Shown here piece after piece: positions 1 through 13,573 of a DNA stretch of 64,000 nucleotides. The DNA comes from an uncultured Acidobacteriota bacterium. GTDB taxonomy: Bacteria; Acidobacteriota; Thermoanaerobaculia; Gp7-AA8. The position numbers were made by a program, and so were the translations under genes. A model generated the notes under the pieces. The model was given only the letters and a program-made list of their open reading frames with translations, was not told where the DNA came from and did not search any database. Location of the stretch: positions 192,001 to 256,000 of the forward strand of contig CAVUKB010000001.1 in the NCBI GenBank assembly GCA_963741955.1. The letters run 5' to 3'. Numbering within the stretch: position 1 is the first letter of the stretch; the number at the start of each line of letters is the position of its first letter.

Positions 1-453
1 GTAGGCGATCCCGTCGAGCGTCTCCGCCCAGCTCGCATCCACGGCCGCGAGATTCGGATCGGCCGTCTGGCCGGCGGCACCGCGGTAGGTCCAAATCCTG
101 AGACGCGAGGCGGGGAAGGTCGCGTAATCCTTCTTGTTCACGAGGATCGACGTGAACGCATCGATCTCACCACGACCGACCGGCATCACCGCCCAGAGAG
201 AATTCGTGGCCGAGGGATTCCCAAAGGTGTAGAGGGGATTCGAGATTGGGATCGTGTGCTTGCCGTAGTAGATCGGGACGGGCCCGCTCGCACCGCCGAT
301 CTGCGTCTCGCCCTTCGTGATCGTATGCGCCGTGCGGTTGGTGACGAGCGGATGCGTGACGGTCGGAGTGGTCGGCACGTCCCCGCCGAGGTTCGGCGGC
401 GTATAGAACGGCGGAGGAGGCGCCGGCCCGCGAACGATGCGCCCGCGAGACAT
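1..453 (-). CDS. Phage tail tip / host-specificity (J-like) protein, N-terminal part (runs off window)
   Basis: Not in ORF track. ATG at 453 overlaps the upstream TGA (TGATG); reads MSRGRIVRG...GPVPIYYGKH...GRGEIDAF...YRGAAGQTADPNL...DGIAY, typical tail-tip motifs. Confidence 0.7.
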   Translation of the reverse strand, partial: MSRGRIVRGPAPPPPFYTPPNLGGDVPTTPTVTHPLVTNRTAHTITKGETQIGGASGPVPIYYGKHTIPISNPLYTFGNPSATNSLWAVMPVGRGEIDAFTSILVNKKDYATFPASRLRIWTYRGAAGQTADPNLAAVDASWAETLDGIAY

Positions 454-840
454 CAGGAGACATCCTCGATGAGCTGGACGTCGAGCTTCCACAGATCCGC
501 CTCGAAATGAGACGGAACGAACCCTTTTTCCGCGAGATACCAGACCGAATACCTCGAGCGAGCTCCTGCTGAGGTGAACGTTATCGCCGCTCCGTTCGCG
601 GGCGCCGCCGCGAATGTGATCTGGTCCTCGCCCTCCGGCCCCGCGCCGGCCGTCAGCACGACTCCGGTCAGCACGCCCGCCACATAGACGGACGGGGCGT
701 CGACCTCCTTCGCAGGGAGGTAAAACACCGTCGTCACTCCGTCACCGGTTCCGACGACGCCATCCGAGACAGGCAACGTCCAGAAGTCGAAGAATGAGAA
801 CTTCGTCGCGCGGTTCGCGAGCCAATGCTGCCAGAGGTGT
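453..840 (-). pseudogene. 5'-truncated DUF2460-like (GTA/phage distal tail region) protein
   Basis: LWQHWLANRATKFSFFDF...VGTGDGVTTVFYLP...QITFAAAPANGAAITF resembles the DUF2460 C-terminal part; no credible N-terminus, fused to the protease 3' end. Confidence 0.6.
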
Positions 841-2151
841 AATCGTCGATCGCAATCCCGGCGGCGCGAGCCCCCGCGAGGGCGAGTGGAGCTGCGCGGC
901 CTCGGGGTCGATCGCGACTTCCTTTCCCGCAACCCTTACCGTGCCGCCCACCTGGCCGGCCTGCACCGGAGGCGCCTCCGGCGCCGGATCCGTCCCCCGC
1001 GCCTGGGCGCGCGGGAGCTCGTCGGCCATCTTCGAGATGACCTCTTTCGCGTGCTCGATCCCGTGCTTCTTCGCGAGCTGCCTGACCCATGGTTCTTTCG
1101 CCGGCGTCACCTTCGGCCGGTTGGCGGCGATGAGCGCGTCGAGCTGCTCCTCCGCGGACTTCGCGGAGAGTTGCGCGAGCTCCGCCTTCGCCGCATCGCG
1201 CTCTGCGATGACGGCGTCGTGCTCCTCGCGCGTGACGACGCCCGCCGGCGAGCGGAGCTCGATGAGCTTCGCCTGAACCGTCGCGAGGTCCGCGTCATCC
1301 TCGATCTCGAGCAGCTCGAGCACCTCGGCCGATGCAACCGGGAGCTCGACGGCTCCGGCATCGTCAGGCTCTGATTTCGCGGTCTGCATCAGCACTTCGG
1401 CGATCGTCGCCGGAGACCCGTCGGATTTCGCCGCGCCGACCTCGAAGAGCATCTGATCGCCGTCCGGCAGTGCGTCGATAACCCGCTGAACAGCAGCCTT
1501 CAGCTCGCTCAGCGTCGTGGTGACTGGCAGCCCCAGCATGTACTGCAGGCGTTCGATGATCTCGTCCATCCCGTTTCCTCCCTTTGCCTTGATCGTCTTC
1601 ATTCGCGCGACCGCCTTCGCGGCGATCTGTTCGTAGAGCTCCGCCTGGTTGTGCGATGCGGGGAGATTCGTGAGAGCCAGCGAGAGCAGAGCCCGGATCC
1701 TCATAGTCTCGGGGTCGTAGAGGTAGACCGGCGAATGGTAGCGATACTCGCCGGAGCGGACCATCTCCGCCGCGCGATCGTTCCACTCGATGGACTTCGC
1801 GATCAGTCCCGCCGTCCCGCCCGCGACGAGTTCCCCTATGAACCCCGCGGCTGGCGCAATCTCGCCGGTGTGCGTCTGGTGCTCGTAATCGATCGGGATC
1901 TTGACGCCCCGGTCACTAAACCCGCCGACGATCTCCTTCTGGCTCGCCGCGTCGGTGACGTAGGTCCCGTGGTCGTTCTCGTAAGTCGGGAACGGGAACA
2001 CAAGGAGCTCGGACGGCAGCCCGTCTGCACCCGCTTTCGCCCCCTTTCGGCGGATCTCGACCGCCTTACCGACGAGCACGGCCAGCCCCGAGCCGTCCAG
2101 ATCCACAGAACCCGCCTTATGTCGTGCTATTTTTTGCGATCGCCCCTTCAT
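742..2151 (-). CDS. Mu-like prohead protease I / scaffold, 3' end disrupted
   Basis: IPIDYEHQT...APAAG...IEWNDRA...EYRYHSP...LALTNLPA Mu_Pro motifs; the C-terminus runs into the downstream tail gene out of frame. Confidence 0.85.
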   Translation of the reverse strand: MKGRSQKIARHKAGSVDLDGSGLAVLVGKAVEIRRKGAKAGADGLPSELLVFPFPTYENDHGTYVTDAASQKEIVGGFSDRGVKIPIDYEHQTHTGEIAPAAGFIGELVAGGTAGLIAKSIEWNDRAAEMVRSGEYRYHSPVYLYDPETMRIRALLSLALTNLPASHNQAELYEQIAAKAVARMKTIKAKGGNGMDEIIERLQYMLGLPVTTTLSELKAAVQRVIDALPDGDQMLFEVGAAKSDGSPATIAEVLMQTAKSEPDDAGAVELPVASAEVLELLEIEDDADLATVQAKLIELRSPAGVVTREEHDAVIAERDAAKAELAQLSAKSAEEQLDALIAANRPKVTPAKEPWVRQLAKKHGIEHAKEVISKMADELPRAQARGTDPAPEAPPVQAGQVGGTVRVAGKEVAIDPEAAQLHSPSRGLAPPGLRSTITPLAALAREPRDEVLILRLLDVACLGWRRRNR

Positions 2152-2307
2152 GGCTCCCGTCCTACCCTCTCACGCCCGATCGCGCCCCAGAGGGCCGCCT
2201 TGCGCGATTTCGATTCCTGACCGATACTGGATGTGCACCCCTCGTCACCCGGATGCCGCGTGCGGCTGCCAACGGAGCGAGGCGTGAGTCCAGGCACGCT
2301 CTGCGAC

Positions 2308-3585
2308 TCACTCTTTCCTCCCCGCCCGGCTGAACACGAGCAGCCCGTTCCTCTCCCGCCGTTCGATACCCTTCCAGTCGCTGGGAGATTCGGGCGACGA
2401 TCTGTAGATCGTGCGGAGCCGCAACCAACCTTCGGCCGAGCGTTCGAAGTAGATCGCGACGATCTTCTTTTTGTCCTCGATCGTGTAAATCCCGAGGTAG
2501 CGTTTGATGTAGTAGGGAGCTCCGTCCGGGCGGTTTCGTCTCACGTACCAGACCTCGGCCGGATTCTCGAGAACGTGCTGGATGAGCGGGAGCACGATGC
2601 CTCGCTCAGCGCGCGCGGCCGGCGAGAGCTGCTCGCCCGATGATGCGTATCCGGCGAGATGCAGAAAGGTGTCTTCATTGACGCGCACGCCGTCGGACGC
2701 ATAGTCGACGAACCAGGCCCCGGTCGCTCCCTCACCGATGCCTGTCGCCTCGCGGAAGGCGTTCCAGTCTGCAGCGCGATCGCCGCGAAAGGGCGACCCG
2801 AGGCGCGGAGGTGAATCCGGCGGCAACGTGTCGAGTGACGCGAGTCCATAGTCCGCCGCCGTCTTCATCGGGATCTCGGGGCCGAGGTCCGCGAGCGCTT
2901 TCGCGAAGAACCGGTCATCCGCCGCCATGACGTTCTTCGGCGCGAAATCGAACCCCGGATCCGGCAGGATCTCGCGCCCGTCGATCACCGGGCCGAGTTT
3001 TGGGTTTTTCTCCCCGTGCTCGTAGAGCTTCCCGCTCTCGCCCGCCTGCTCCGCTGTCAGCGATGTCACGTTGTAATGGCGTTCGTTGTGGTGATTCGGC
3101 GGATAGATGTGATCCCAGATCGGGTCATCGTGGCGCGCGACCAGGCCCTCGAGCTGCCGGCAGATCGCGCTGGTCCGTCCGTCGTGCGGCCCGAGCGGAT
3201 ACTGCCAATAAGGGCGCTCGTCGAGGACGTCGGGATCGCTCAACTGCTGATAGCGCCCGGCCGCGGTCGCGGTGGCGATCGCGTTCTGGTGGATAAGCTC
3301 GAGCCGCTGGGGCGACAGGATCGTCCCACCCTGGGCATCGACGATCTCGCCCAGGTGATCCGCGAAATCGCTCTTCGTCATACCGCTGGCCAGCGCCTCC
3401 TCGACTAAACGATTCGCCTCGAGCAGAGACGAATAGCGCTGCAAGCCGGTGATCGTGAACGCTCTCGGACGGGCTTCCGGAATGAGCGAATAGAAGTTGT
3501 CCGCGACCATCGGCGAGCGCTTCCGCTGAAAGAGGAGCGCCTCCTGGAAGGGCTTGAGGACCTTGCGGACCGCGGGCGTCGTCAT
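2308..3585 (-). CDS. MuF / SPP1 gp7-like head morphogenesis protein with C-terminal PBECR2-like extension
   Basis: True start MTTPAVRK at 3585 (ATGA overlap with portal); RAFTITG, RLELIHQN, DGRTS..C, DDPIW...PPNH MuF motifs; C-terminal LENPAEVW...KRYLG. Confidence 0.85.
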   Translation of the reverse strand: MTTPAVRKVLKPFQEALLFQRKRSPMVADNFYSLIPEARPRAFTITGLQRYSSLLEANRLVEEALASGMTKSDFADHLGEIVDAQGGTILSPQRLELIHQNAIATATAAGRYQQLSDPDVLDERPYWQYPLGPHDGRTSAICRQLEGLVARHDDPIWDHIYPPNHHNERHYNVTSLTAEQAGESGKLYEHGEKNPKLGPVIDGREILPDPGFDFAPKNVMAADDRFFAKALADLGPEIPMKTAADYGLASLDTLPPDSPPRLGSPFRGDRAADWNAFREATGIGEGATGAWFVDYASDGVRVNEDTFLHLAGYASSGEQLSPAARAERGIVLPLIQHVLENPAEVWYVRRNRPDGAPYYIKRYLGIYTIEDKKKIVAIYFERSAEGWLRLRTIYRSSPESPSDWKGIERRERNGLLVFSRAGRKE

Positions 3586-5126
3586 GCCGACTCCTCCGCC
3601 ACGTCGCCCGCGCCCATTGCTTCCGCGACCGCCATTGCCTGCGCGAGGATCTCGCCGTGGCGCGCCGAGTCGAGCTGGTCTACGCTCTCCCACAGCCGGT
3701 CGATCGCCTCGTCGAGCGTCTCTGCTCCGCGGACGAGCTCGAGGATCTTTTGAGTCTGCTCGCGGTTCGCGATCGTCCCGAGCTCGAGGACGAGGGCGGC
3801 GACATCCTCCGCCGTTTGGAGCTTTGGCTTCTTCGGCCCGCTCGCCGCGGCCGTACCGGTCCGCCTCTTCGCGGCGCCGAGCCCCGCGGGCGGCGCCGGA
3901 GCGGTCGCCTCGACCGTGCGCACCTGAAACACGTCCTCGATCTGCGAGGGGTCGATGGCTCGGCCCACCGAGGCGAGCGCCTCGTTTACGATCACGTAGA
4001 CTTGAGACGTCTTCGTGAGATCGGCCGGCGGCGCTGCATTGATGCGGAAATTCGGGATCTCTCCGCTCTCGACCTGGTCCCATCCCCGGTTGAAACCCCA
4101 CCACACGGCGACGACCTGTTCCTGCACGCTCTCGGCAATCTGCCCAGCGACGGCTTCGATGTTGTCGTTCGCGACTTCTTCGGCGTGATTGCCAGCGAGC
4201 GTGCCCGTCCCGCTCTTCGCCTCTGAGTTGAGCACGTGCCCGTTGATCAACTTCGTGATCGCTTCGTCGGATGCGGAGATGATCGCCTGGTAGAGCGACG
4301 TCGTGCCGTAGCGCTGCGCCTCCTGGAGTTTGACCTCGGTACCGGCTGGGAATGCCGCCCGCGCGTTCGCGGCGAGCCCTGTGATTGCTTCGAGCACCGA
4401 GTCGCGCGATTCGGCGCGGTCGAAGAACGCCCAGATCATCGGGTTCCCGTAGGCGTTCGCAAAGCGCATGAGCCATTCCCAGGAGGAATGTTTGAAGAGC
4501 CAGTACCAGGCGATCTTCCTCCACAGTCCGCGCTCGGTGAGCCGGCCGTCGGAGAGTCCACCCGAGTGGAAGACGAACCCTCGAGGGTTCACAGGCTCGC
4601 CGGCGGACGGACTCGCGATCGTGCGGAGTCGCAGCTCCCTCGTCGTCGGATCCTGACGCCAGCGCGGAGCGTCGACGACCTCCCACCCGGAGACCTTGTA
4701 GTCACGCGACCAGAGGATCTCCGGAGCGACGAATGGATAATGCTCACCGAAAACGAGGTGATACCGGAGACCGGAAAACGTGCGGAAGCCGTTCAGCATC
4801 GCGCTCACGTCCTCCGCGTCCTTCTTCGCGCCGGCGGAATCGTCGAACGGCTCGATGGACCAGTCGAGCTTCGAGACTGCGGACGCGAGATTGCGATACG
4901 ACGAGAAGACGTGCGCGTCCTCCAGGAGCTTCTTCGCGACGAGCATCTGTTGCTCGAGCGCAGCGTTGCCGCGCAGGACTCGCGCGAGGAACTCGGGGGT
5001 GAGCGTGCCGGTCGTGAGCCCCGCCCACGGATCGCGCACCCGTCCAATCTCCGCCTGCCGGTCCGGCGGGCGTTTGTCGAACGTGACGGTGTTGCCGAAA
5101 GCGTCGTAGAGGACCGTCTCAGCCAC
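3582..5126 (-). CDS. Mu gp29-like portal protein (DUF935)
   Basis: GTG start at 5126 after a G-rich RBS; LTPE.LARVLR, DAHV, GLWRKIAWYWLFKH, FANAYGNP, KLINGHVLNSE. Confidence 0.9.
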   Translation of the reverse strand: MAETVLYDAFGNTVTFDKRPPDRQAEIGRVRDPWAGLTTGTLTPEFLARVLRGNAALEQQMLVAKKLLEDAHVFSSYRNLASAVSKLDWSIEPFDDSAGAKKDAEDVSAMLNGFRTFSGLRYHLVFGEHYPFVAPEILWSRDYKVSGWEVVDAPRWRQDPTTRELRLRTIASPSAGEPVNPRGFVFHSGGLSDGRLTERGLWRKIAWYWLFKHSSWEWLMRFANAYGNPMIWAFFDRAESRDSVLEAITGLAANARAAFPAGTEVKLQEAQRYGTTSLYQAIISASDEAITKLINGHVLNSEAKSGTGTLAGNHAEEVANDNIEAVAGQIAESVQEQVVAVWWGFNRGWDQVESGEIPNFRINAAPPADLTKTSQVYVIVNEALASVGRAIDPSQIEDVFQVRTVEATAPAPPAGLGAAKRRTGTAAASGPKKPKLQTAEDVAALVLELGTIANREQTQKILELVRGAETLDEAIDRLWESVDQLDSARHGEILAQAMAVAEAMGAGDVAEESA

Positions 5127-6825
5127 GATACGCCCCCCATCCATCGCGACTCTGGCCCCACGCGGGGACCTGTGCGCCACGCGGTGTGACGATCTCGAAC
5201 GGCATGAACGCCGGAGCGACGAGCTCCGCGATGCGCGCCGAGTTGCCCGCCATCCCGAAGTGGTTCGCGACGCCCTTCACGTACCGATCGACCGCGCGTC
5301 CCTTCGCGTCGATGACCCGCTCCTTCCGGAGGTTCTTGAGATGCTGCGAGAGCGTCGAGAGGACCTCGCTCTCCTTCGCCGGGAGGATCAGCCCGAGCGG
5401 TCCGGTGATCTCGGCGGTGAAGTCGTCCAGCGACTCGTCGCGGTTCACCTTCACGCACCGATAGGTCCGCGACTCATGCTGCTCTTCGACGAGCTTCTGC
5501 TCGGACGAATCGGTGAAGTCCTGCAGGACGACCGTTCGCGGGAACCGGTATGCGAGCGCTCGCGCGACCGTGGTCAGCGGCTTCTTGTCGATCACGAGTT
5601 GAGTGATCCCGATCCGGTCGATGATCTCCGATACCCGCTCGACCGCCCGATCGCTGTCGATCTCTTCGATCCAGACGAGGCGCTTCCGGCCGTCCGGGAG
5701 CCGCTCGTCCACCCAGAGATGACACAGGTCGCCCGTGTCCATCCCGCCGTAGCGCGGAAGAAACCCGCGCGCCCCGGACAGCACGCACTCGGACGACCGC
5801 ATCGCGGCGAGCTCGGCGTCGCTCACGGGCTGCATTGCCCCGGCGTCCGGGATCGCGAGGACCGAGCAGCGAAACTTCGCCATCTCGGATTTCTTTCGCT
5901 GCGCTCGCTGCCACCGATGCCAGATCGCGTCGCCCGGCATCGATCCGACCGCGAGCGCGGAAAGACGGAACGAATAGCGACGGGATTTTTCCCGGTTTGG
6001 GAAGGTCGCGACCCACTCGCCGCGGGAAAGATCGAGCTCGCGCCTGCAACGCGGACAGACCCGCGTCCAGTGCCCGCCCAGCTTGGCCATGCACTCCGGA
6101 AACGTCTCCTCGAGACAGATCCCGCGTAGCCGGCAATGCGCGCAGCGGAACAGTATCCGGCGCTGCGAGCCTTCTTGCCACTTCGAATCGATGCCCGCGC
6201 CTGGCGTGTAGCCGGCGGAGAAATAAATCGCAAGACGGAGAGGCGAGCGAGCCACGCGGCCGCGTGACCATTCGAGGTTCTCTTCCGGCAGTAGGTCCAC
6301 CTCGTCATAAGCGAGGACGTCGAGCGGAATCGAGACCGCGCCGAGCATCGCCTCGAGGCCGAGGACGTACAGGAACCGGCCGTCGAACTCTTTGATCGTC
6401 GCCTGGCTTACGACCTCGCGATCGCGAAGATGCGACGAGAGGAACGGAGAGCGGCTGATCATGCGCTTCAGCCGCGTGCGGCCGAATCGGTGCGCGAACT
6501 TGTCGGTCGGCAAAAAGTATCCGACGTTGTACTGGCGATCGGCGACCAGATGCAGAGCGGCCCCGATTCCGATCGTCGTCGCGCCGACCTGCTCGGCCTT
6601 GAGTAGCGTGATCTCGCTGTCCGTCTCTCTCCTGCGCACCGCGCGATCGAGGATCCCCAGGAGCTCGCCGAAGGGCTCGTATCCCGTGAGCGACCAGCGG
6701 CCGTTCTCGGTGTCGACGTCCTGCTCGAGGAAGTCCTGGATGGTCGAGGGACGAGCGGCGACGCCCGGGGCGGTCGCATCTACGGACAGAGTACCCAGCC
6801 AGTCTGCGGTGGTGTTGCGCGTCAC
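5119..6825 (-). CDS. Terminase large subunit, lambda GpA-like family
   Basis: Walker A KAEQVGAT, Walker B LAYDEVD, two CxxC pairs, nuclease GMDTG and NHFGMA. Confidence 0.88.
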   Translation of the reverse strand: MTRNTTADWLGTLSVDATAPGVAARPSTIQDFLEQDVDTENGRWSLTGYEPFGELLGILDRAVRRRETDSEITLLKAEQVGATTIGIGAALHLVADRQYNVGYFLPTDKFAHRFGRTRLKRMISRSPFLSSHLRDREVVSQATIKEFDGRFLYVLGLEAMLGAVSIPLDVLAYDEVDLLPEENLEWSRGRVARSPLRLAIYFSAGYTPGAGIDSKWQEGSQRRILFRCAHCRLRGICLEETFPECMAKLGGHWTRVCPRCRRELDLSRGEWVATFPNREKSRRYSFRLSALAVGSMPGDAIWHRWQRAQRKKSEMAKFRCSVLAIPDAGAMQPVSDAELAAMRSSECVLSGARGFLPRYGGMDTGDLCHLWVDERLPDGRKRLVWIEEIDSDRAVERVSEIIDRIGITQLVIDKKPLTTVARALAYRFPRTVVLQDFTDSSEQKLVEEQHESRTYRCVKVNRDESLDDFTAEITGPLGLILPAKESEVLSTLSQHLKNLRKERVIDAKGRAVDRYVKGVANHFGMAGNSARIAELVAPAFMPFEIVTPRGAQVPAWGQSRDGWGAYRG

Positions 6826-7454
6826 GCGGCACCTCCGAGCTGACGCTGACGGACCTCTTCGACCTTTGCGAGCACACGCCGGAGGAGCGGAGGATCGTCG
6901 CGGAGGAGCTGCTCGAGCTCCGCGCGCAGGATCTTGAGCGCGCGGTCGACGCCTCGCGTGACGGCGAGGCGCGTCCGCTCGCGCGCCGCGCTCGAGCTCT
7001 GCAGCTTTGCGGCCGCGACGACGGTCGAGAGCTCCTCGTCCGAGAGGGCTTTCGGCTTCCCGTTCTCATCTTCTCCGAGAAGCGACTCGAGGATCCGCGT
7101 ATTGAGGAGCTGCGAGACGGCCTCCTCGAGCGCGAGCACCTCGTCCTGGTCGGAGGTGCGGAGGAGCTTGGCCTTCTCGACGAGCATCCGCACCGCGCGG
7201 CGCTGGATCTCGAATTTGTAACCGTATCGCGCGAGCGCGCTGCGCGAGACGTGGTAGCCCGTACCGCGGAGCCGCTCGATCATCTCGTCGTAGGTCGGCC
7301 GCGGGATCTCGAGGAGCCACGAATCGATGAGCTGCGCGAGGCCGACGTGCAGCTCGACCGCCGGATGGCCGCGACGCGGCTTCCCGGCCGGCCGCTTGTC
7401 CGCCGGTTTCTTCGCCGCCGGCTTCCGGCCCGGCTTCTGCGCCGCTCGCGTCAT
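6822..7454 (-). CDS. DUF3486 / Mu gp27-like small terminase subunit
   Basis: TYDEMIERL..GYHVSRSALARY HTH signature; directly upstream of terL. Confidence 0.8.
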   Translation of the reverse strand: MTRAAQKPGRKPAAKKPADKRPAGKPRRGHPAVELHVGLAQLIDSWLLEIPRPTYDEMIERLRGTGYHVSRSALARYGYKFEIQRRAVRMLVEKAKLLRTSDQDEVLALEEAVSQLLNTRILESLLGEDENGKPKALSDEELSTVVAAAKLQSSSAARERTRLAVTRGVDRALKILRAELEQLLRDDPPLLRRVLAKVEEVRQRQLGGAA

Positions 7455-7735
7455 GCGGTGCGCTCCCGTTTCAGCGCACGGTGTACGCCCGCGAACCCGT
7501 CGCGCATCTGATCTGCCAGGTCGATCCGCTGCCGGACTTCGCCGAGCTGCTCACGCGTCGCGTATTCCTCGCGGATGTCGCGTGCGAGCTGACCCTGCAG
7601 CTGGAGGAGAGCATTTGCCACCTCGAGCTTCTCCTGTCGGAGTGTCGTCCGGATCGAGTAGACGAGGAGCGCGACGATGCCGTTGAGGAGCATCGTCGCG
7701 ATGAGCGAGGCGAGAGAGATGACCAGCGGCGTCAC
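7451..7735 (-). CDS. Phage single-TM coiled-coil protein (Mu gp25/DUF2730-like position)
   Basis: GTGA-coupled start at 7735; N-terminal TM, then EEYATREQLGEV coiled coil. Confidence 0.65.
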   Translation of the reverse strand: MTPLVISLASLIATMLLNGIVALLVYSIRTTLRQEKLEVANALLQLQGQLARDIREEYATREQLGEVRQRIDLADQMRDGFAGVHRALKRERTA

Positions 7736-8046
7736 TGCGCAGCACCCCCGGCGCCGCGGCATTTCGCGAGCTCGCCCTGGAGGCGCGCGATCTTCTCCCT
7801 TAGCGCTGCATATGTCGCCGCGTCGAGCAGAATGCCATCGAACGGAGCGGCCTCGCCGGACGCGATCCAGTGGACGCGGACATCGACGGGCGTGACCGGA
7901 GCTGCGGCGACGATCGGGCCGCGGGCGCGGATCCGCATTGCCCCGCACCCGGCCGCGAAAGCGAGAACCAGGAGGAGACAAAGGGCGACCGAGGCCGCGC
8001 AGCGGCTACCTAAGAGCCGCTTCGATGTCTGACTTGCTGCGGTCAT
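7732..8046 (-). CDS. Lipoprotein, probable o-spanin (Rz1-like)
   Basis: Signal peptide with lipobox FAAG-C; 5' end overlaps the 3' end of the upstream TM gene. Confidence 0.55.
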   Translation of the reverse strand: MTAASQTSKRLLGSRCAASVALCLLLVLAFAAGCGAMRIRARGPIVAAAPVTPVDVRVHWIASGEAAPFDGILLDAATYAALREKIARLQGELAKCRGAGGAAQ

Positions 8047-8209
8047 CGTCCTTTCTCTCCACCTCATTCGCGATTTCCGTGAGCGCCTCCGACACCTGCG
8101 TGTCGGTCTTCGCCGCGCGCCGCGCCGGATCAGAGTTCCCGCGGATCAGCATCAGGATCAGCGTCACGATCCCGCTGAGCAGAGCGACTACCGCGCCGAG
8201 AGTCGTCAT
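8006..8209 (-). CDS. N-terminal TM helical protein, probable i-spanin (Rz-like)
   Basis: ATGA-coupled start 8209; MTTLGAVVALLSGIVTLILMLI followed by a helical charged tail. Confidence 0.55.
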   Translation of the reverse strand: MTTLGAVVALLSGIVTLILMLIRGNSDPARRAAKTDTQVSEALTEIANEVERKDDDRSKSDIEAALR

Positions 8210-8727
8210 TTCGCCGCCCATGCGCCGGCTTCGCATACGTACCATGTCGAGCCTGCGCCGCCCTCGGTTCGCGAGTAGAACGAGCCCGTCGTGCATGCGC
8301 CCGACGGAGCTCCGGCTCCCGCGGTCCAGGACGGACCCGCAGATAGGGCGAAAGAATCAGAGATCGTTCCGCCGGTGACGTTCGCGCCTCCGGCAGATAC
8401 GTACAGGCCTCCGGCATCAACATCGAGACCACCGGTGGTGATCTCCAGCGCGTCGGTGACCAGTGAGAAGGCGTTCCCCTGGGTGCTCGTGATCTGCATC
8501 AAGTCGACCCAATGGCCAACCGGAAACTGAACGAATTGGTGTTGGTTGGTGATGCCGACGCCGCCGATCGTCACGTTCTGGCCGTTCAGGCTGGTGATGC
8601 TCAGAGTGGCGGTCGAGATCGAATCGACTGAGAGATTCTGCGAAACGCCCTTGCGCGTCTCGGTCCCGGCAGCAAGCGTCGCCGTCGTGAAGGTCAGGAG
8701 CAGGATGGCGATCAGTCGTCGTTTCAT
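8206..8727 (-). CDS. Phage secreted beta-rich protein with tail-spike-like C-terminal motif
   Basis: Sec signal MKRRLIAILLLTFTTATLA; C-terminus GAGAPSG...GSFYSRTEGGAGSTWYV...WAAK; RBS GAGGAG. Confidence 0.7.
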   Translation of the reverse strand: MKRRLIAILLLTFTTATLAAGTETRKGVSQNLSVDSISTATLSITSLNGQNVTIGGVGITNQHQFVQFPVGHWVDLMQITSTQGNAFSLVTDALEITTGGLDVDAGGLYVSAGGANVTGGTISDSFALSAGPSWTAGAGAPSGACTTGSFYSRTEGGAGSTWYVCEAGAWAAK

Positions 8728-8739
8728 CGTGGTCTCCTC

Positions 8740-9060
8740 TCAGGCGTGGCTCTTGTTGAGTGCGACGACGATCGTGCATTGCGCATCGGCAAAGAACCGC
8801 AATTGCTGCGATAGCAGCCAGCTCGAGTTGTTCACCTGAAACACGTCGCCGGCACTCATCGGCATGTCGTTCGCGTCCGCGTCGGTGCCGTCGTTGTTGC
8901 GGTAGACGGTTCCTGCCGTCACCTGAATCTCGGCATCGCTGCATCCGTCCGGAAGTGCGGCGAGGCCGCAGAGATCCGCGAGGGTCGTCGTGCCGGCGAG
9001 TGCAGCGGCCGAGGTCGTGTAGGTGCCGAGGCCGATCGTGGCCGCCTGGACGATGTGCAT
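8740..9060 (-). CDS. Phage hypothetical small beta protein
   Basis: RBS GGAGG, operon position, natural amino-acid composition. Confidence 0.7.
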   Translation of the reverse strand: MHIVQAATIGLGTYTTSAAALAGTTTLADLCGLAALPDGCSDAEIQVTAGTVYRNNDGTDADANDMPMSAGDVFQVNNSSWLLSQQLRFFADAQCTIVVALNKSHA

Positions 9061-9062
9061 TG

Positions 9063-9152
9063 CTATTTCCTCCGCCGGCGCGCGCGCACCATCGCGACGC
9101 AGAGGAGCGCGATCAGCGCGAGCAGGATGTATTCGGTGATCAAGTAGGGCAT
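9063..9152 (-). CDS. 29-aa single-TM peptide MPYLITEYILLALIALLCVAMVRARRRRK
   Basis: Below the ORF-track cutoff; exactly fills the gap between neighbours; hydrophobic helix plus polybasic tail. Confidence 0.55.
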   Translation of the reverse strand: MPYLITEYILLALIALLCVAMVRARRRRK

Positions 9153-9156
9153 CCCT

Positions 9157-9555
9157 TCACCTCGGGTCTTCGGCGGTTGGCAAATGCGGCGGCGCGAGCT
9201 GCGGCGCCGGCTCCCGGTTGATCTCGAGCGCCTTCTCCCACCAGGCCCGCGTCGGCTTTTCCTTCATCGTTGCGTGGCCGTATTCGTCTGCGAGCAGGAT
9301 GGCGGTCCGCTCGCCGAGCCATTCGCCGTGCGGGCCGCGGTCCGTCACGCGCACTGTGTCGACGACGCGAGATAGATCGAGCGTCACGATCGCGTAGTGC
9401 TTCCCGCACTCCTGGACTCGGAGAATCTTTGCGCCGTCGCGCCAGGGCACGGTCCATCCGCGATGGGAAGGCCGCGGCGGCCCGATCTCACTCGCTCCCA
9501 GCACGCACGCGATCAGGCTCGCGACGGCGACGACGGCGCAAAGGTGTTTTCGCAT
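9157..9555 (-). CDS. Phage exported hypothetical protein
   Basis: N-terminal signal-like segment MRKHLCAVVAVASLIACVLG; operon context. Confidence 0.65.
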   Translation of the reverse strand: MRKHLCAVVAVASLIACVLGASEIGPPRPSHRGWTVPWRDGAKILRVQECGKHYAIVTLDLSRVVDTVRVTDRGPHGEWLGERTAILLADEYGHATMKEKPTRAWWEKALEINREPAPQLAPPHLPTAEDPR

Positions 9556-9559
9556 CGCG

Positions 9560-9799
9560 TCAGTTTCCGCCGAGTGACGCCTTCACCGCGCTCCGACCAG
9601 CGATGTACTTCGCGCCGGGCCAGGCCATGAGGACGAAGGTCAGCACCTTGTCGAGGACGCTGACGATCGCCGCGATCGCAGGGCTCGCCGTGACCGTCCC
9701 AACATCGACGTTGCCCGCCATGCCGAACAGGTGCAGCACCGCGACGATGAAGATGACGACGACCGTGAGAAACTCCGTGCTCTTCCATCCAGGCTTCAT
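9560..9799 (-). CDS. Holin-like two-TM protein
   Basis: Start MKPGWKSTEF with RBS AAGGAGAG; two TMs; YIAGRSAVK end, a pattern seen in putative holins. Confidence 0.7.
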   Translation of the reverse strand: MKPGWKSTEFLTVVVIFIVAVLHLFGMAGNVDVGTVTASPAIAAIVSVLDKVLTFVLMAWPGAKYIAGRSAVKASLGGN

Positions 9800-9885
9800 G
9801 CTCTCTCCTTTGAAGTCCCGCCGAGCGGCCCTGATCCGCCCGGCGGGCGAACAACAACATCGTGCGCGCATCGCGCTCTGGAAAT

Positions 9886-10525
9886 TCAATCGATTGATGC
9901 GAACGGGATCACGCGCGGCGTCCCGGCCCTCCGGTCGGTCACCACCGCGAATCCATAGATCTGCTGCGAATACGCTGCGACGCTCCCGGGGAACCCGACG
10001 CCAGAGCCCTCGGTGAGCTCGATCCGCCCGACGCTCACCCGCGTCGCGAGCTCGACGAATGTGAGCTCGCCGTCGCCGGCCACGTCGAAACTCTCGGTCC
10101 CGGCCAACTGGTTGTCGTGGTCATAGACTCGCGCGGTGACGACGCTCGGCGTCCCCTCGTCGAAGAAGGCCAGATGGGTGACCCAACGGTCATCGTTCTG
10201 GATGATCCGCACGTCCTGCGGATCCGGGAGGTGAGCAGTCAGCGGTGGCACTTCGAAGGAGATTGACAGGCCGCCTTCGACGAATCGCATGAGCGAGGTC
10301 ACGCGCGCGGAGCCTTCGAGAATCTTCACCTGGGTGATCCCGGCGCGCGGGCCGCAGACGTATCGTCCGAAGTCCTCCGCGATCGCCGAGCCGTTCGGCG
10401 GGATCGTGATCTGCCAGGATTCGGACCAGCACCCGGACGGCGCGATCGTCGCGCCATCGGTGGTCGTGATCAGCAGATCCGTGTCGTAGAGATCCGTGTC
10501 GGCGTAGACCAGGCGCGGGGCGCTG
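9886..10525 (-). pseudogene. 5'-truncated secreted beta-sandwich protein
   Basis: YDTDLLIT...VTHLAFF...ARVYDHDNQLAG...YGFAVVTDRRAGTP looks natural; the residues upstream of ~10525 do not. Confidence 0.55.
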
Positions 10526-10663
10526 GAAAATCTGGACGAAAAATCAACGCGAGGAGCTCTCGGACCTCGAAAGGACGCCAGGAGCGGAGATTCGCCCACG
10601 GAGTGGAAAAGGCGTCGCCGCGGTCCCGGGGGACCGCTCTCGGCTCAGTCAGTTCGCCGCCGA

Positions 10664-11017
10664 TTGGAATTCGCGCAGTCGCTCACGCGCCGCCGGCGAG
10701 AGTCTCCCGCCGGCGACAGCGGCTCTTCGTCATTTCGTGGCCCTCGCGGCCTCAATCTCATTGAGCTGAAACTGCTGATAGTCGATCTCGAGCTTCGCGA
10801 TCTCGAGCGAGTCGCCAGCTTCGTCCTGGGAATGGCTGAAGCGTATTCGGCGGGCGTCGCCGGATACGCGAGCGGCCATCATTCACATCAATCGAATTCA
10901 CCGAAGCCGGACTGGCGCGTCTTCGTGGAAGTCCGGCCAGCGCCTCCGGATGCCCCGGCGGAGCAGCCGTTGGCAGAGCAGGAGTCGATCGAGGCGAGCA
11001 TTTCGAGCGCGCCATAG
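10664..11017 (+). pseudogene. Phage hypothetical gene remnant
   Basis: Plausible C-terminal part (LIELKLLIVDLELRDLERVASFVLG); no clear start or RBS. Confidence 0.35.
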
Positions 11018-11106
11018 ATCCCTCTGCGAAACCGCGTGCTCGCCCGAGTGCGCGGTCGTCCGCTGGTGGCTCGGCGGGCCTGATGAGCAGCCCAGGAGAT
11101 GACGCT

Positions 11107-11376
11107 ATGGAATCGCTCACACCACAGGCAGCACGGGAGGTTGAGGTGCGAAGGATCGTCGCCGGCGTATGCGGACGATCGGTCGTCGGCACGACGGCAG
11201 GGACGCGGATCCGTCGAGATCTCGGGCTCACGGTCGACCAGGAGCGCGAGATCGCATGGCAGCTCTCGAATGCGTTTGGGATCGATCTCCGTGCGATCGA
11301 GTGGGCCGACCTCGTGACAATCGGGGACCTCCTTAATCGTGTCGATATCGCGATCGAACGGGAGCGATTCGCATGA
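11107..11376 (+). CDS. Acyl carrier protein-like protein lacking the phosphopantetheine Ser
   Basis: VRRIVA...TRIRRDLGLTVDQEREIAWQLSNAFGIDL...LVTIGDLLNRV aligns by eye to ACP; DSL replaced by TVD; RBS AGGAG. Confidence 0.7.
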   Translation: MESLTPQAAREVEVRRIVAGVCGRSVVGTTAGTRIRRDLGLTVDQEREIAWQLSNAFGIDLRAIEWADLVTIGDLLNRVDIAIERERFA

Positions 11377-11645
11377 CCGCGCTCGCGCAGCTGCATGTCG
11401 CAGTACTGGCGGCGACTTGCGCCCGCGAGGACGGACGTCCTCAGTCGTTCATCGACGTCATCAATATCCTCGCCGCCGCGGATCCGAGCGACATCGCTGC
11501 GGCAGTACTGGTTCTCGAGAGGGCAGGCTTCGTGCGCGTATTCGACCGCGACGGGCGCACTTGGGTGCGGCCGCAACGGACCGCCTGGATCGTGATCGCT
11601 GCGCACCTGAAACTCGCCAGAAGAGGCACGGAGTACGCGGCATGA
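11373..11645 (+). CDS. Small winged-helix-like phage protein
   Basis: ATGA coupling on both sides; AAVLVLERAGFVRV wHTH-like end. Confidence 0.6.
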   Translation: MTALAQLHVAVLAATCAREDGRPQSFIDVINILAAADPSDIAAAVLVLERAGFVRVFDRDGRTWVRPQRTAWIVIAAHLKLARRGTEYAA

Positions 11646-12040
11646 GCGGGTCCTGGCTCGAGCGTGGAAGCGTCGATCGGGCGCATGCAGTCAGCGTGGT
11701 CAAGATTATCTGGCGCCGTCTCGGCCGGGCCTCTGCGATTTCGATGCACGCGATCCGCCGTCAGACCGGTATCCCGACTCGCGAGATTCAATCGATCGTG
11801 AAATGGCTGGTCGAAGAGCGATCTCTCCCGATCGGCACGTCGCCCGCGCGGCCGTGGGGTTACTACTGGATCTCGACCGAAGACGAGCGACGAAAGGTCC
11901 GAAACCACTTCATCCGGCGCGCTCTCTCGACCCTCGAGCACGCGAAAGCCTATGACCGGGATTCGATCGTGGCCCCGCTGGTCGGACAACTCAAGCTCAT
12001 TTCGGAGGAGGGCGAGCATGAGTCGCAAGAAATACGGTGA
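11642..12040 (+). CDS. Phage winged-HTH DNA-binding protein
   Basis: Start MSGSWLER (ATGA overlap); GRASAISMHAI...TREIQSIVKWL...LPIG...GYYWISTEDE. Confidence 0.7.
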   Translation: MSGSWLERGSVDRAHAVSVVKIIWRRLGRASAISMHAIRRQTGIPTREIQSIVKWLVEERSLPIGTSPARPWGYYWISTEDERRKVRNHFIRRALSTLEHAKAYDRDSIVAPLVGQLKLISEEGEHESQEIR

Positions 12041-12713
12041 CCGTGAGCGTCGGATCGCGATCGAGATCTACGAGGCGACCGGAAGCCACTTAAAGGCAGC
12101 AGCGGCCGCCGGAACCTCGCCGTGTTGGGTATATGAGCTCCTGCGCCGGGAGGGCCGCGTGAAGCGTGCGTGGCCAACCTATACCGCGCGGCAAGCGCAT
12201 CGGGCGGTGGAGCTGTATCGCTCTGGTCTAAGCACATCTCTCGTGGCACAAGAGATCGGCGGCGTGTCACGTGAATGGGTGCGCGTGCAGGTCGTGGCTG
12301 CTGGAATCCTTCGTTCGAAATCTCACGCGATGCGGCTGCGTATGGCTAGGGAGAAGGGCCGAGACTACGAGCAGCTGCGGCGAGAGGCTCTCGAGCTCGC
12401 GACAGAGCAATTGATGTCCGTGCGTGCCATCGCAAAGTATCTCAGCGTCTCGACGAACTTCGTGAAACAGGCGATCCCTCGGGAGCTGCGTTGCAATCCG
12501 AAGGACGCAACGCTGCGCCGCAAGTGGCAGGCCTTCCTTCCCGACGTCGAGGCCCGCCGGGAGCGGCGTGAGCGGGTAATTTTGATGCGGCGCGGAGGTG
12601 CGACCTACGCGCGGATCATCGCCGAAACGGGTGTCTGCCAGGCGACCGTCTACCGTTATCTCTCCGAGGCCGGGCTCACCGGCTCGCTGCGCGACCAAAG
12701 GAGGATGAGGTGA
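12018..12713 (+). CDS. Multi-HTH phage regulatory protein
   Basis: Start MSRKKYG with RBS GGAGG; four HTH-like repeats, e.g. GLSTSLVAQEIGGVSREWV, MSVRAIAKYLSVS, GATYARIIAETGVCQATVYRYL. Confidence 0.75.
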   Translation: MSRKKYGDRERRIAIEIYEATGSHLKAAAAAGTSPCWVYELLRREGRVKRAWPTYTARQAHRAVELYRSGLSTSLVAQEIGGVSREWVRVQVVAAGILRSKSHAMRLRMAREKGRDYEQLRREALELATEQLMSVRAIAKYLSVSTNFVKQAIPRELRCNPKDATLRRKWQAFLPDVEARRERRERVILMRRGGATYARIIAETGVCQATVYRYLSEAGLTGSLRDQRRMR

Positions 12714-13573
12714 TTACTTCTGCGCAAATTCGCATGCTGCATATCGCCCAGCGGCAGCTCGAGATTCCGCGTGAGCACTACGAGGCGATCATGCTCGAGG
12801 CAGCCGGGGTGACGAGCTCAAAGGCGCTCGACAACGCGGGCTTCGACGCGGTGATCCGGAGGTTCGAGGAACTTGGATTCCGCAACACGGCCCGTCATTC
12901 GCGGCGTCCATATCATCCAGCCGAGCCAATCACTCATGCCCAGCAGCAGTTGATCGAGGGACTCTATCTCGAGCTCGGATGGGACGACCGCGATCGGCAG
13001 ATCGGCTTCAACCGCCGCCAATGCCGGAAATCCTGGCCACAGACCCGCCGCGACGCGAACCGGGTGATCGAAGGACTGAAGGCGATCCGCGCAAGATCGA
13101 GCCGGTCAGCCGGCCTGGGCCTCCTGGAGCTTCTTGTCGTGATCGCGGTGCTTGGGCTTCTTTTATGCGGCGCCGCGGTGGGGAAGGATCGCACGGCCAC
13201 CCCGCCCGCCCGTACCGTCATCCCGTACCTCGAAGCGTCCACTCATCCGTATCTGGCGACTGAATTCTCGGCCATCCGTGACGCCGAGAATTACATCGAG
13301 TTGCTCCCACTCCAGGAGGCGGTTACGGCCGTGATCACGCGGTGGGACGATCCCGACGATACGTCTAACACCTTCATCGTCCTGCACCGGACGAATCCCT
13401 GGCCAGCTCACGCAGCCCGAATCCCCTTGCGTGTTGGGGTATTGGATTTCGATTCCCCTGCCGCCCTGTTTAACACGCGCGAATGGTACGCTATGCAGGG
13501 CTACAAGACCGCGATGGCAACCGGGGTCGGCACGCGCCGTTACCTGCTCGTGATCGACCAGGGACCGCTCTAA
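12710..13573 (+). CDS. gemA: GemA (Mu gp16 / DUF1018) fused to a prepilin-like TM and C-terminal domain
   Basis: QIRMLHIAQRQL...GVTSSKAL...FEELGF...ANRVIEGLKA matches GemA; followed in frame by AG-LGLLELLVVIAVLGLLL. Confidence 0.75.
   Translation: MITSAQIRMLHIAQRQLEIPREHYEAIMLEAAGVTSSKALDNAGFDAVIRRFEELGFRNTARHSRRPYHPAEPITHAQQQLIEGLYLELGWDDRDRQIGFNRRQCRKSWPQTRRDANRVIEGLKAIRARSSRSAGLGLLELLVVIAVLGLLLCGAAVGKDRTATPPARTVIPYLEASTHPYLATEFSAIRDAENYIELLPLQEAVTAVITRWDDPDDTSNTFIVLHRTNPWPAHAARIPLRVGVLDFDSPAALFNTREWYAMQGYKTAMATGVGTRRYLLVIDQGPL

Follow-up and report, generated by a model that had tools for sequence, protein, structure and literature searches.

A serine-less acyl carrier protein homologue in the early region of Mu-like phages

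A short gene at the start of a coupled prophage operon

The window, by which we mean the whole 64,000-nucleotide stretch of DNA analysed, comes from an uncultured Acidobacteriota bacterium and carries a Mu-like prophage with two divergent operons. Its late operon lies on the reverse strand and, only about 500 bp away, a series of short overlapping genes on the forward strand begins with one that encodes an 89-aa protein resembling acyl carrier proteins (ACPs). The features referred to throughout are as follows.

742..10599 (-), divergent late operon of the Mu-like prophage
742..2151 (-), Mu protease I
2308..4686 (-), fusion of a Mu F domain with a PBECR2 nuclease domain
5119..6825 (-), large terminase (phrog_675)
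6822..7454 (-), small terminase (phrog_426)
9886..10599 (-), first late gene
11094..11098 (+), Shine-Dalgarno-like AGGAG, 8 nt 5' of the ATG, as read in the sequence
11107..11376 (+), gene for the 89-aa serine-less carrier-protein homologue; predicted helices at residues 6-22, 43-57, 63-66 and 72-88
11233..11235 (+), codon GTC for Val43, at the column of the phosphopantetheine serine and the start of helix II, as placed by two alignments and the model
11302..11304 (+), codon for the family-invariant Trp66 (19/19), which aligns with an Ala in helix III of the host AcpP
11373..11645 (+), 90-aa gene, probably winged-helix, with no significant family match; ATGA overlap with the preceding gene, translationally coupled
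11642..12040 (+), 132-aa phrog_2113 protein, viral winged-helix-like, 48% identical to its counterpart in the related phage G438
12018..12713 (+), multi-HTH protein whose C-terminus matches HTH_23/HTH_7; the gene may start at either 11952 or 12018
12710..13573 (+), GemA-domain protein (domain at residues 22-129) with about 150 additional C-terminal residues, which open with a prepilin-type methylation motif

The open reading frame of the ACP-like gene was listed as 11083..11376 on the forward strand, and initiation at the ATG at 11107 gives the 89-aa protein RDLGLTVDQEREIAW. The database copy of this protein (P0001) is 76 aa long and starts instead at an internal GTG at 11146; we favour the start at 11107 because the alignments of relatives begin at residues 2-8. 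With AGGAG at 11094-11098 in front of this ATG, the first-pass annotation was right to describe an 89-aa reading frame with a good ribosome-binding site. GC content at codon positions 1, 2 and 3 is 0.70, 0.48 and 0.69, close to that of the other genes of the operon. A promoter and terminator scan gave no promoter-like site and nothing that exceeded shuffled sequence, and the spacer at 10.6-11.1 kb contained only short, unremarkable repeats.

Downstream, the ACP-like gene is followed on the forward strand by the 90-aa gene, the phrog_2113 gene, the multi-HTH gene and the GemA gene, each overlapping the one before it: by ATGA at 11373-11376, by ATGA at 11642-11645, by 23 nt at 12018-12040 and by GTGA at 12710-12713. 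The ATGA and GTGA overlaps, together with the HTH_23/HTH_7 and GemA matches, bear out the earlier description of a phage setting and a coupled operon rich in HTH genes.

Comparison with an intact relative

The family could be read in genomic context in two places only, the window prophage and G438, a 44,332-bp Mu-like viral contig from IMG/VR that is also represented by a 5.2-kb duplicate. In G438 the early operon starts with MuA, a MuB-like ATPase, two small genes, a 439-aa protein, an HTH_31 protein, Gam and a SEC-C protein, and continues with the ACP-like gene, an 87-aa winged-helix-like gene joined to it by an ATGA overlap, a homologue of the phrog_2113 gene and GemA. Other Mu-type genes on this contig are gp27, Portal_Mu, Mu F and protease I. 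Its layout is divergent like that of the window, and the first late genes of the two phages are homologous (35% and 49% identity). Given the Mu-type genes in both the window and G438, the ACP-like gene is a member of a Mu-like early region.

Both contexts share the order ACP-like gene, small winged-helix-like gene, phrog_2113 gene, GemA, with ATGA following the ACP-like gene. The two ACP-like proteins are 38% identical, and no BLASTP similarity was detected between their winged-helix neighbours (E 7.9).

Compared with G438, the window prophage has a gap between late operon and ACP-like gene, from which the repressor region, MuA, MuB, Gam and the SEC-C gene are missing (window 10600-11107 versus L044:11435-13948 onward). 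The window itself has no MuA, MuB or Gam, and a G438 query found no MuA homologue in the genome from which the window comes. By this comparison, the window prophage is a defective deletion derivative of a G438-like Mu-type phage, and because it is defective the gene may not be expressed here. This also qualifies the claim of the first-pass annotation that the gene heads its operon: it does so in the deleted window prophage, because that prophage lost its transposase region, but not in intact G438, where it lies mid-operon after MuA, MuB, Gam and SEC-C.

To the left of the Mu protease gene (window 1-2151; L038:17399-19922) there is first an ORF of 159 aa and next a protein of 678 aa that has a Phage-tail_3 domain. 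Between them no gene for a major capsid or tail-tube protein was recognised, so the late region also looks shortened. Separately, both phages carry a Mu F-like head protein with a C-terminal PBECR2 domain, which is Barnase/EndoU/colicin-like (window 2308-4686, reverse strand; L044:2914-4164, reverse strand).

Carrier-protein homology and predicted fold

Taken alone, the protein gives weak matches to carrier-protein profiles. The direct match to Pfam PP-binding (PF00550) covered profile positions 2-66 of 67 at E 0.018, and its 15.7 bits fall below the Pfam curated cut-off of 20.8. PHROG 5934, 'acyl carrier protein', was matched at E 0.005 (18 bits; residues 6-84 on profile positions 11-89 of 93) and NCBIfam AcpM at E 0.058. 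Across the family, 9 of 17 members matched PP-binding at E <= 0.1, the best at 4.4e-4. Profiles built from the family gave much stronger signals. Aligned by hhalign with nine canonical ACPs, the host AcpP included, the family scored 98.0% (E 2.2e-13) over 74 columns, with an identity of only 18% over the aligned columns. Searched against PDB sequences, the family profile returned 39 matches at E <= 0.01, all of them ACPs, the best being AcpM (1klp) at 1e-7; among 400 other genomes from the phylum, it also recovered canonical ACPs or carrier domains in 62, in register in every case.

One candidate from outside the carrier proteins was rejected. Zika virus NS1 came top when the single sequence was searched against PDB with phmmer (E 0.0036-0.013, residues 14-72), ahead of a free-standing ACP at E 0.015. 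We regard this as chance: neither the fold nor the profile comparisons support it, and in the family-profile search the NS1 match was gone and only ACPs were left.

The AlphaFold2 model has carrier topology, and its pLDDT rises from 85.5 for the sequence alone to 94.0 when the family alignment is supplied. In a structural search of 48,161 representative chains, the best 50 rows were all carrier proteins, carrier domains or chains of complexes, at Z 13.0-9.8, values that count only together with the sequence evidence since Z below about 13 can be common among helical bundles; the rmsd to carrier proteins was 1.5-3.9 A over 71-87 residues. Foldseek against the PDB gave no match at E <= 0.001 (best 1.7e-3), and its best 13 rows were all ACPs, with TM-scores by target of 0.66-0.84. 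Among the viral models of BFVD, phage ACPs came out on top (best E 9.7e-5, TM 0.78/0.85), and the protein atlas agreed. The predicted structure is thus the four-helix carrier fold, as the first-pass annotation had proposed from sequence landmarks. Because the profile and fold evidence is strong, the resemblance is more than chance despite the weak direct Pfam match, and the protein is almost certainly a very diverged homologue of acyl and peptidyl carrier proteins from which the serine is absent.

The phosphopantetheine serine is missing throughout the family

The earlier reading that the invariant DSL is replaced by TVD held up. Two alignments, independent of one another, one of the family HMM with 29 canonical carriers and the other by hhalign, both placed T42-V43-D44 on the canonical D-S-L, so that the serine position is occupied by Val43, which is also the first residue of helix II in the AlphaFold model. 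We then compared this column across 23 family members, 29-47% identical, comprising the window protein, the G438 homologue, 14 representatives from an exhaustive search, 3 from a further search and 3 cluster mates; 3 of the 23 are near-duplicates. None of the 23 has Ser at the phosphopantetheine column, compared with 29 of the 29 canonical carriers. The column instead holds Gly (11 members), Leu (3), Ala (2) or Pro (2), with Val, Asn, Met, Phe and Glu once each. One residue past the canonical column, Ser occurs in 5 of the 23 members and Thr in 4; the window protein has Asp44 there. The check that the first-pass annotation had called for, whether phage homologues consistently lack Ser, therefore came out in its favour, and retention of DSL by close homologues, which it had named as the mark of simple decay, was seen in no member.

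Other positions are strongly conserved. Arg15, Trp66 and Val79 are invariant in all 19 non-redundant members, and Glu48 (18 of 19), Ser25, Gly58 and Val59 (17 of 19 each) are nearly so. In the other two members Ala replaces Ser25, a residue sited in the loop that follows helix I and not where helix II begins. The counterpart of Trp66 in the host protein is an Ala in helix III, which we take to be the equivalent of E. coli AcpP Ala59, a residue that lines the acyl pocket; by this analogy, a Trp at that position would plug the pocket. Because none of the 23 homologues has the serine while Arg15, Trp66 and Val79 are invariant, loss of the serine is old and maintained, a selected state and not simple decay.

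Surface charge, host AcpP and carrier partner genes

The family also differs from canonical carriers in charge. Over the aligned core, the window protein has a net charge of -1 and the family ranges from -5 to +2 (pI 4.7-8.4), whereas the cores of the 29 canonical carriers, aligned with the same profile, range from -15 to 0 with a median of -12. The host AcpP is canonical and acidic and has the DSL; its EEE stretch, the helix II patch, aligns with S-N-A in the window protein, at positions that vary across the family. ACP partners dock mainly on the acidic face of helix II, and many ACP clients need the holo or acylated form. Judged from the sequences, the acidic partner-docking surface is gone.

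Genes that would serve a carrier were sought on the contig and in both phages. On contig C1 the ACP-like gene is at 203 kb and the AMP-binding and ketosynthase matches closest to it are at about 320 kb, more than 115 kb off, which agrees with the earlier remark that no fatty-acid genes are nearby. Family scans found no transferase, synthase or ligase gene in the window prophage or in G438. No PADLOC model matches the window protein.

Two features of the host genome were recorded alongside these scans. The ACPS transferase model PF01648 had no match at E <= 0.01 in this genome, which is 99.1% complete and has the canonical AcpP; the host holo-ACP synthase may be too diverged for the model. A near-identical cluster of an AMP-binding enzyme, a small carrier protein and two ketosynthase-like genes is present three times (G000 C1:320087-325177, C2:2238-7329 and C3:2372-7471), and two of the three copies sit at contig starts.

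Distribution of the family

An exhaustive HMMER search of 1.84 billion representatives returned 18 proteins at E <= 0.001: the window protein, 15 small proteins (66-142 aa, 33-47% identity) and two long ones. The long ones, P0015 (1527 aa) and P0016 (1149 aa), were excluded from the alignments because both are multi-domain proteins that matched only in part. Fused forms were looked for among the longer proteins and none was found, which is weak evidence on the point. With the family profile, members were absent from 400 genomes of the phylum and 400 of the class, other than the genome of the window, and in tblastn against 50,697 isolated phage records both the ACP-like protein and the phrog_2113 protein went unmatched. 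Metagenome and viral contigs searched with the family and phrog_2113 alignments gave only G438 and its 5.2-kb duplicate. Viral contigs searched with the window protein, P0004, P0022 and a sub-family alignment gave no relative, and genome contigs searched with P0011 and the phrog_2113 alignment gave nothing.

Most members come from metagenome assemblies. For P0004 there are 32 contigs, the longest of 43.9 kb, and for P0009 there is one of 41.2 kb; the sizes of member contigs, 41-45 kb, fit whole Mu-like genomes. The family is small, rare and patchy, and our search of the literature found no account of a phage ACP-like protein lacking the serine.

Some candidate relatives were discarded. Weak single-protein matches in L004 and L005 failed the family profile at E <= 1. 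One member, P0018 (142 aa), has a Cys-rich N-terminal extension, and its matches at L045:8001-8117 and L046:6709-6816 involved the Cys-rich part only; both are viral contigs without an ACP-like gene.

Proposed role and alternatives

Because the attachment serine and the acidic docking surface are missing, the phage has neither partner enzymes nor a transferase, and an invariant Trp sits at the pocket-lining position of helix III, we consider it likely, on sequence grounds, that the protein would act by binding other proteins and not as a carrier. What it binds is a less certain matter. The reading we prefer, tentatively, is that the protein, with its carrier fold and no cofactor, would bind another protein as a subunit within the early module of the phage. 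The preferred partner would be a product of the same operon, either the co-translated winged-helix protein or the phrog_2113 protein, and through it the ACP-like protein would modulate the early regulatory and host-modulation module, of which GemA is the last member. We put this choice of partner forward a little more hesitantly still; what speaks for it is that gene order and ATGA coupling persist although the ACP-like proteins of the two phages share only 38% identity. Early operons of phages are often translationally coupled, which on its own does not prove a complex, and winged-helix neighbours as dissimilar as those of the two phages would sit poorly with a conserved interface. Next in likelihood, and close behind, would be a host protein: one involved in defence, some other host protein or, less likely, an ACP client. 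It is conceivable, though we would not count on it, that Mu-like phages have a dedicated family of near-neutral, cofactor-less carrier-fold proteins with an invariant helix III Trp, which pair with small winged-helix proteins as a new regulatory subunit upstream of GemA.

A host target could be reached in more than one way. The protein may bind or inhibit some host protein as an anti-defence or host-takeover factor, with the scaffold reused for a purpose unrelated to ACP biology. This would suit a small early protein in the variable 'semi-essential' region of Mu-like phages, between Gam and GemA in G438, and a family as rare and patchy as accessory genes are; the invariant Arg15 and Trp66 are features of the family, not of carriers. 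We nevertheless find it rather doubtful, as no PADLOC model is similar to the protein, and a coupling to the following gene that is both tight and conserved points rather to a partner from the phage. The first-pass annotation had favoured a decoy of host ACP, which would occupy the ACP sites on FAS enzymes, LpxA/D, SpoT and other clients and so block or divert them. The protein shares its fold with ACP, Glu48 of helix II is kept and aligns with a Glu in helix II of the host AcpP, and phages frequently use mimics. Set against these are a family only 18% identical to canonical ACPs, a net charge of -1 where the carriers have a median of -12, the S-N-A of this protein in place of the EEE patch, and the need of many ACP clients for a holo or acylated partner. 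The lost acidic surface and a Trp that would plug the pocket argue against classical ACP mimicry, and we judge the decoy unlikely.

The two remaining alternatives are much less probable. The protein might still be a carrier, modified at Ser25, at Thr42 or, in some members, at the Ser one residue past the canonical column, and the frequency of Ser25 (17 of 19) and of the +1 Ser (5 of 23) could be cited for this. Ser25, however, lies in the loop after helix I and is Ala in 2 of the 19, the +1 Ser is absent from 18 of the 23 members including the window protein (Asp44), neither phage has a transferase, synthase or ligase gene, and known transferases act on the helix II serine, so that such a modification is very improbable. 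Slightly less credible again is a functionless, decaying remnant of a phage-borne metabolic ACP gene. The state of the window prophage speaks for it: the prophage is defective, with no MuA homologue by the G438 query and an early region deleted relative to G438. But the frame is intact and the models are confident; fold, core and invariant residues are all retained in more than 20 relatives (29-47% identity), none of which has the serine, and relatives are seen repeatedly on contigs of 41-45 kb, P0004 among them on its 32.

Relation to known carrier proteins

The closest comparison is with the type II ACPs (AcpP, AcpM; PF00550). The window protein has their four-helix fold, a helix II that starts at the canonical position, in-register profile similarity, a DLG/L motif before helix II, G-[VI] after it and the T-[VI]-G-D-L of helix IV. 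It differs from them in having Val43 in place of the serine, in being near-neutral, in the invariant Trp of helix III and Arg of helix I, in its lack of FAS, PKS or NRPS neighbours and in scoring below the Pfam cut-off. Like the phage-encoded ACPs (PHROG 5934; the BFVD proteins of Olleya phage Harreka_1, phiCbK and ViI), it is a small free-standing protein with the carrier fold; its sequence similarity to them is marginal, with the ViI protein matching weakly in BFVD (E 0.41). In outline, PMC8224337 describes a canonical acpP beside fabF and fabG in Rhodobacteraceae prophages, a case different from the present one.

Precedent for a carrier-fold protein acting as a bound subunit, and not as a shuttle, comes from ACPs with structural roles in mitochondrial complex I (SDAP/ACPM), Nfs1-ISD11-ACP, MmpL5-AcpM and EmbB-AcpM, and entries of this kind figure among the fold matches of the window protein. 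These ACPs keep the serine, whereas the window protein does not. They usually bind through the acyl-phosphopantetheine arm, a mode that the window protein would be unable to use because it has no cofactor serine.

Because it fails on the serine, the acidic surface and nearby partner enzymes, we do not class the protein as an acyl carrier protein. What we describe from sequence and models is well supported as an observation on structure and evolution, and the function put forward here is a proposal. Automatic annotation would label such a gene 'acyl carrier protein' or hypothetical, and the first label would be functionally wrong, as there is no cofactor site. That a whole small family keeps the fold and never the serine points to a carrier scaffold that transposable phages have put to another use. 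Identifying a partner, be it a winged-helix regulator of the phage or a protein of the host, would give a way into the early region of Mu-like phages, which is poorly understood.

The last gene of the operon has a peculiarity of its own. The GemA ORF of the window is 287 aa long, compared with 141 aa for GemA of G438, and its GemA domain ends near residue 129. In frame after the domain there is a prepilin-type N-terminal methylation motif at residues 131-152 (about 13100-13165; Pfam N_methyl E 7e-4, TIGR02532 E 0.0067), followed by about 135 residues. The long ORF could be a fusion, could conceal a second gene, or could mark the end of the prophage joined to a host pseudopilin gene.
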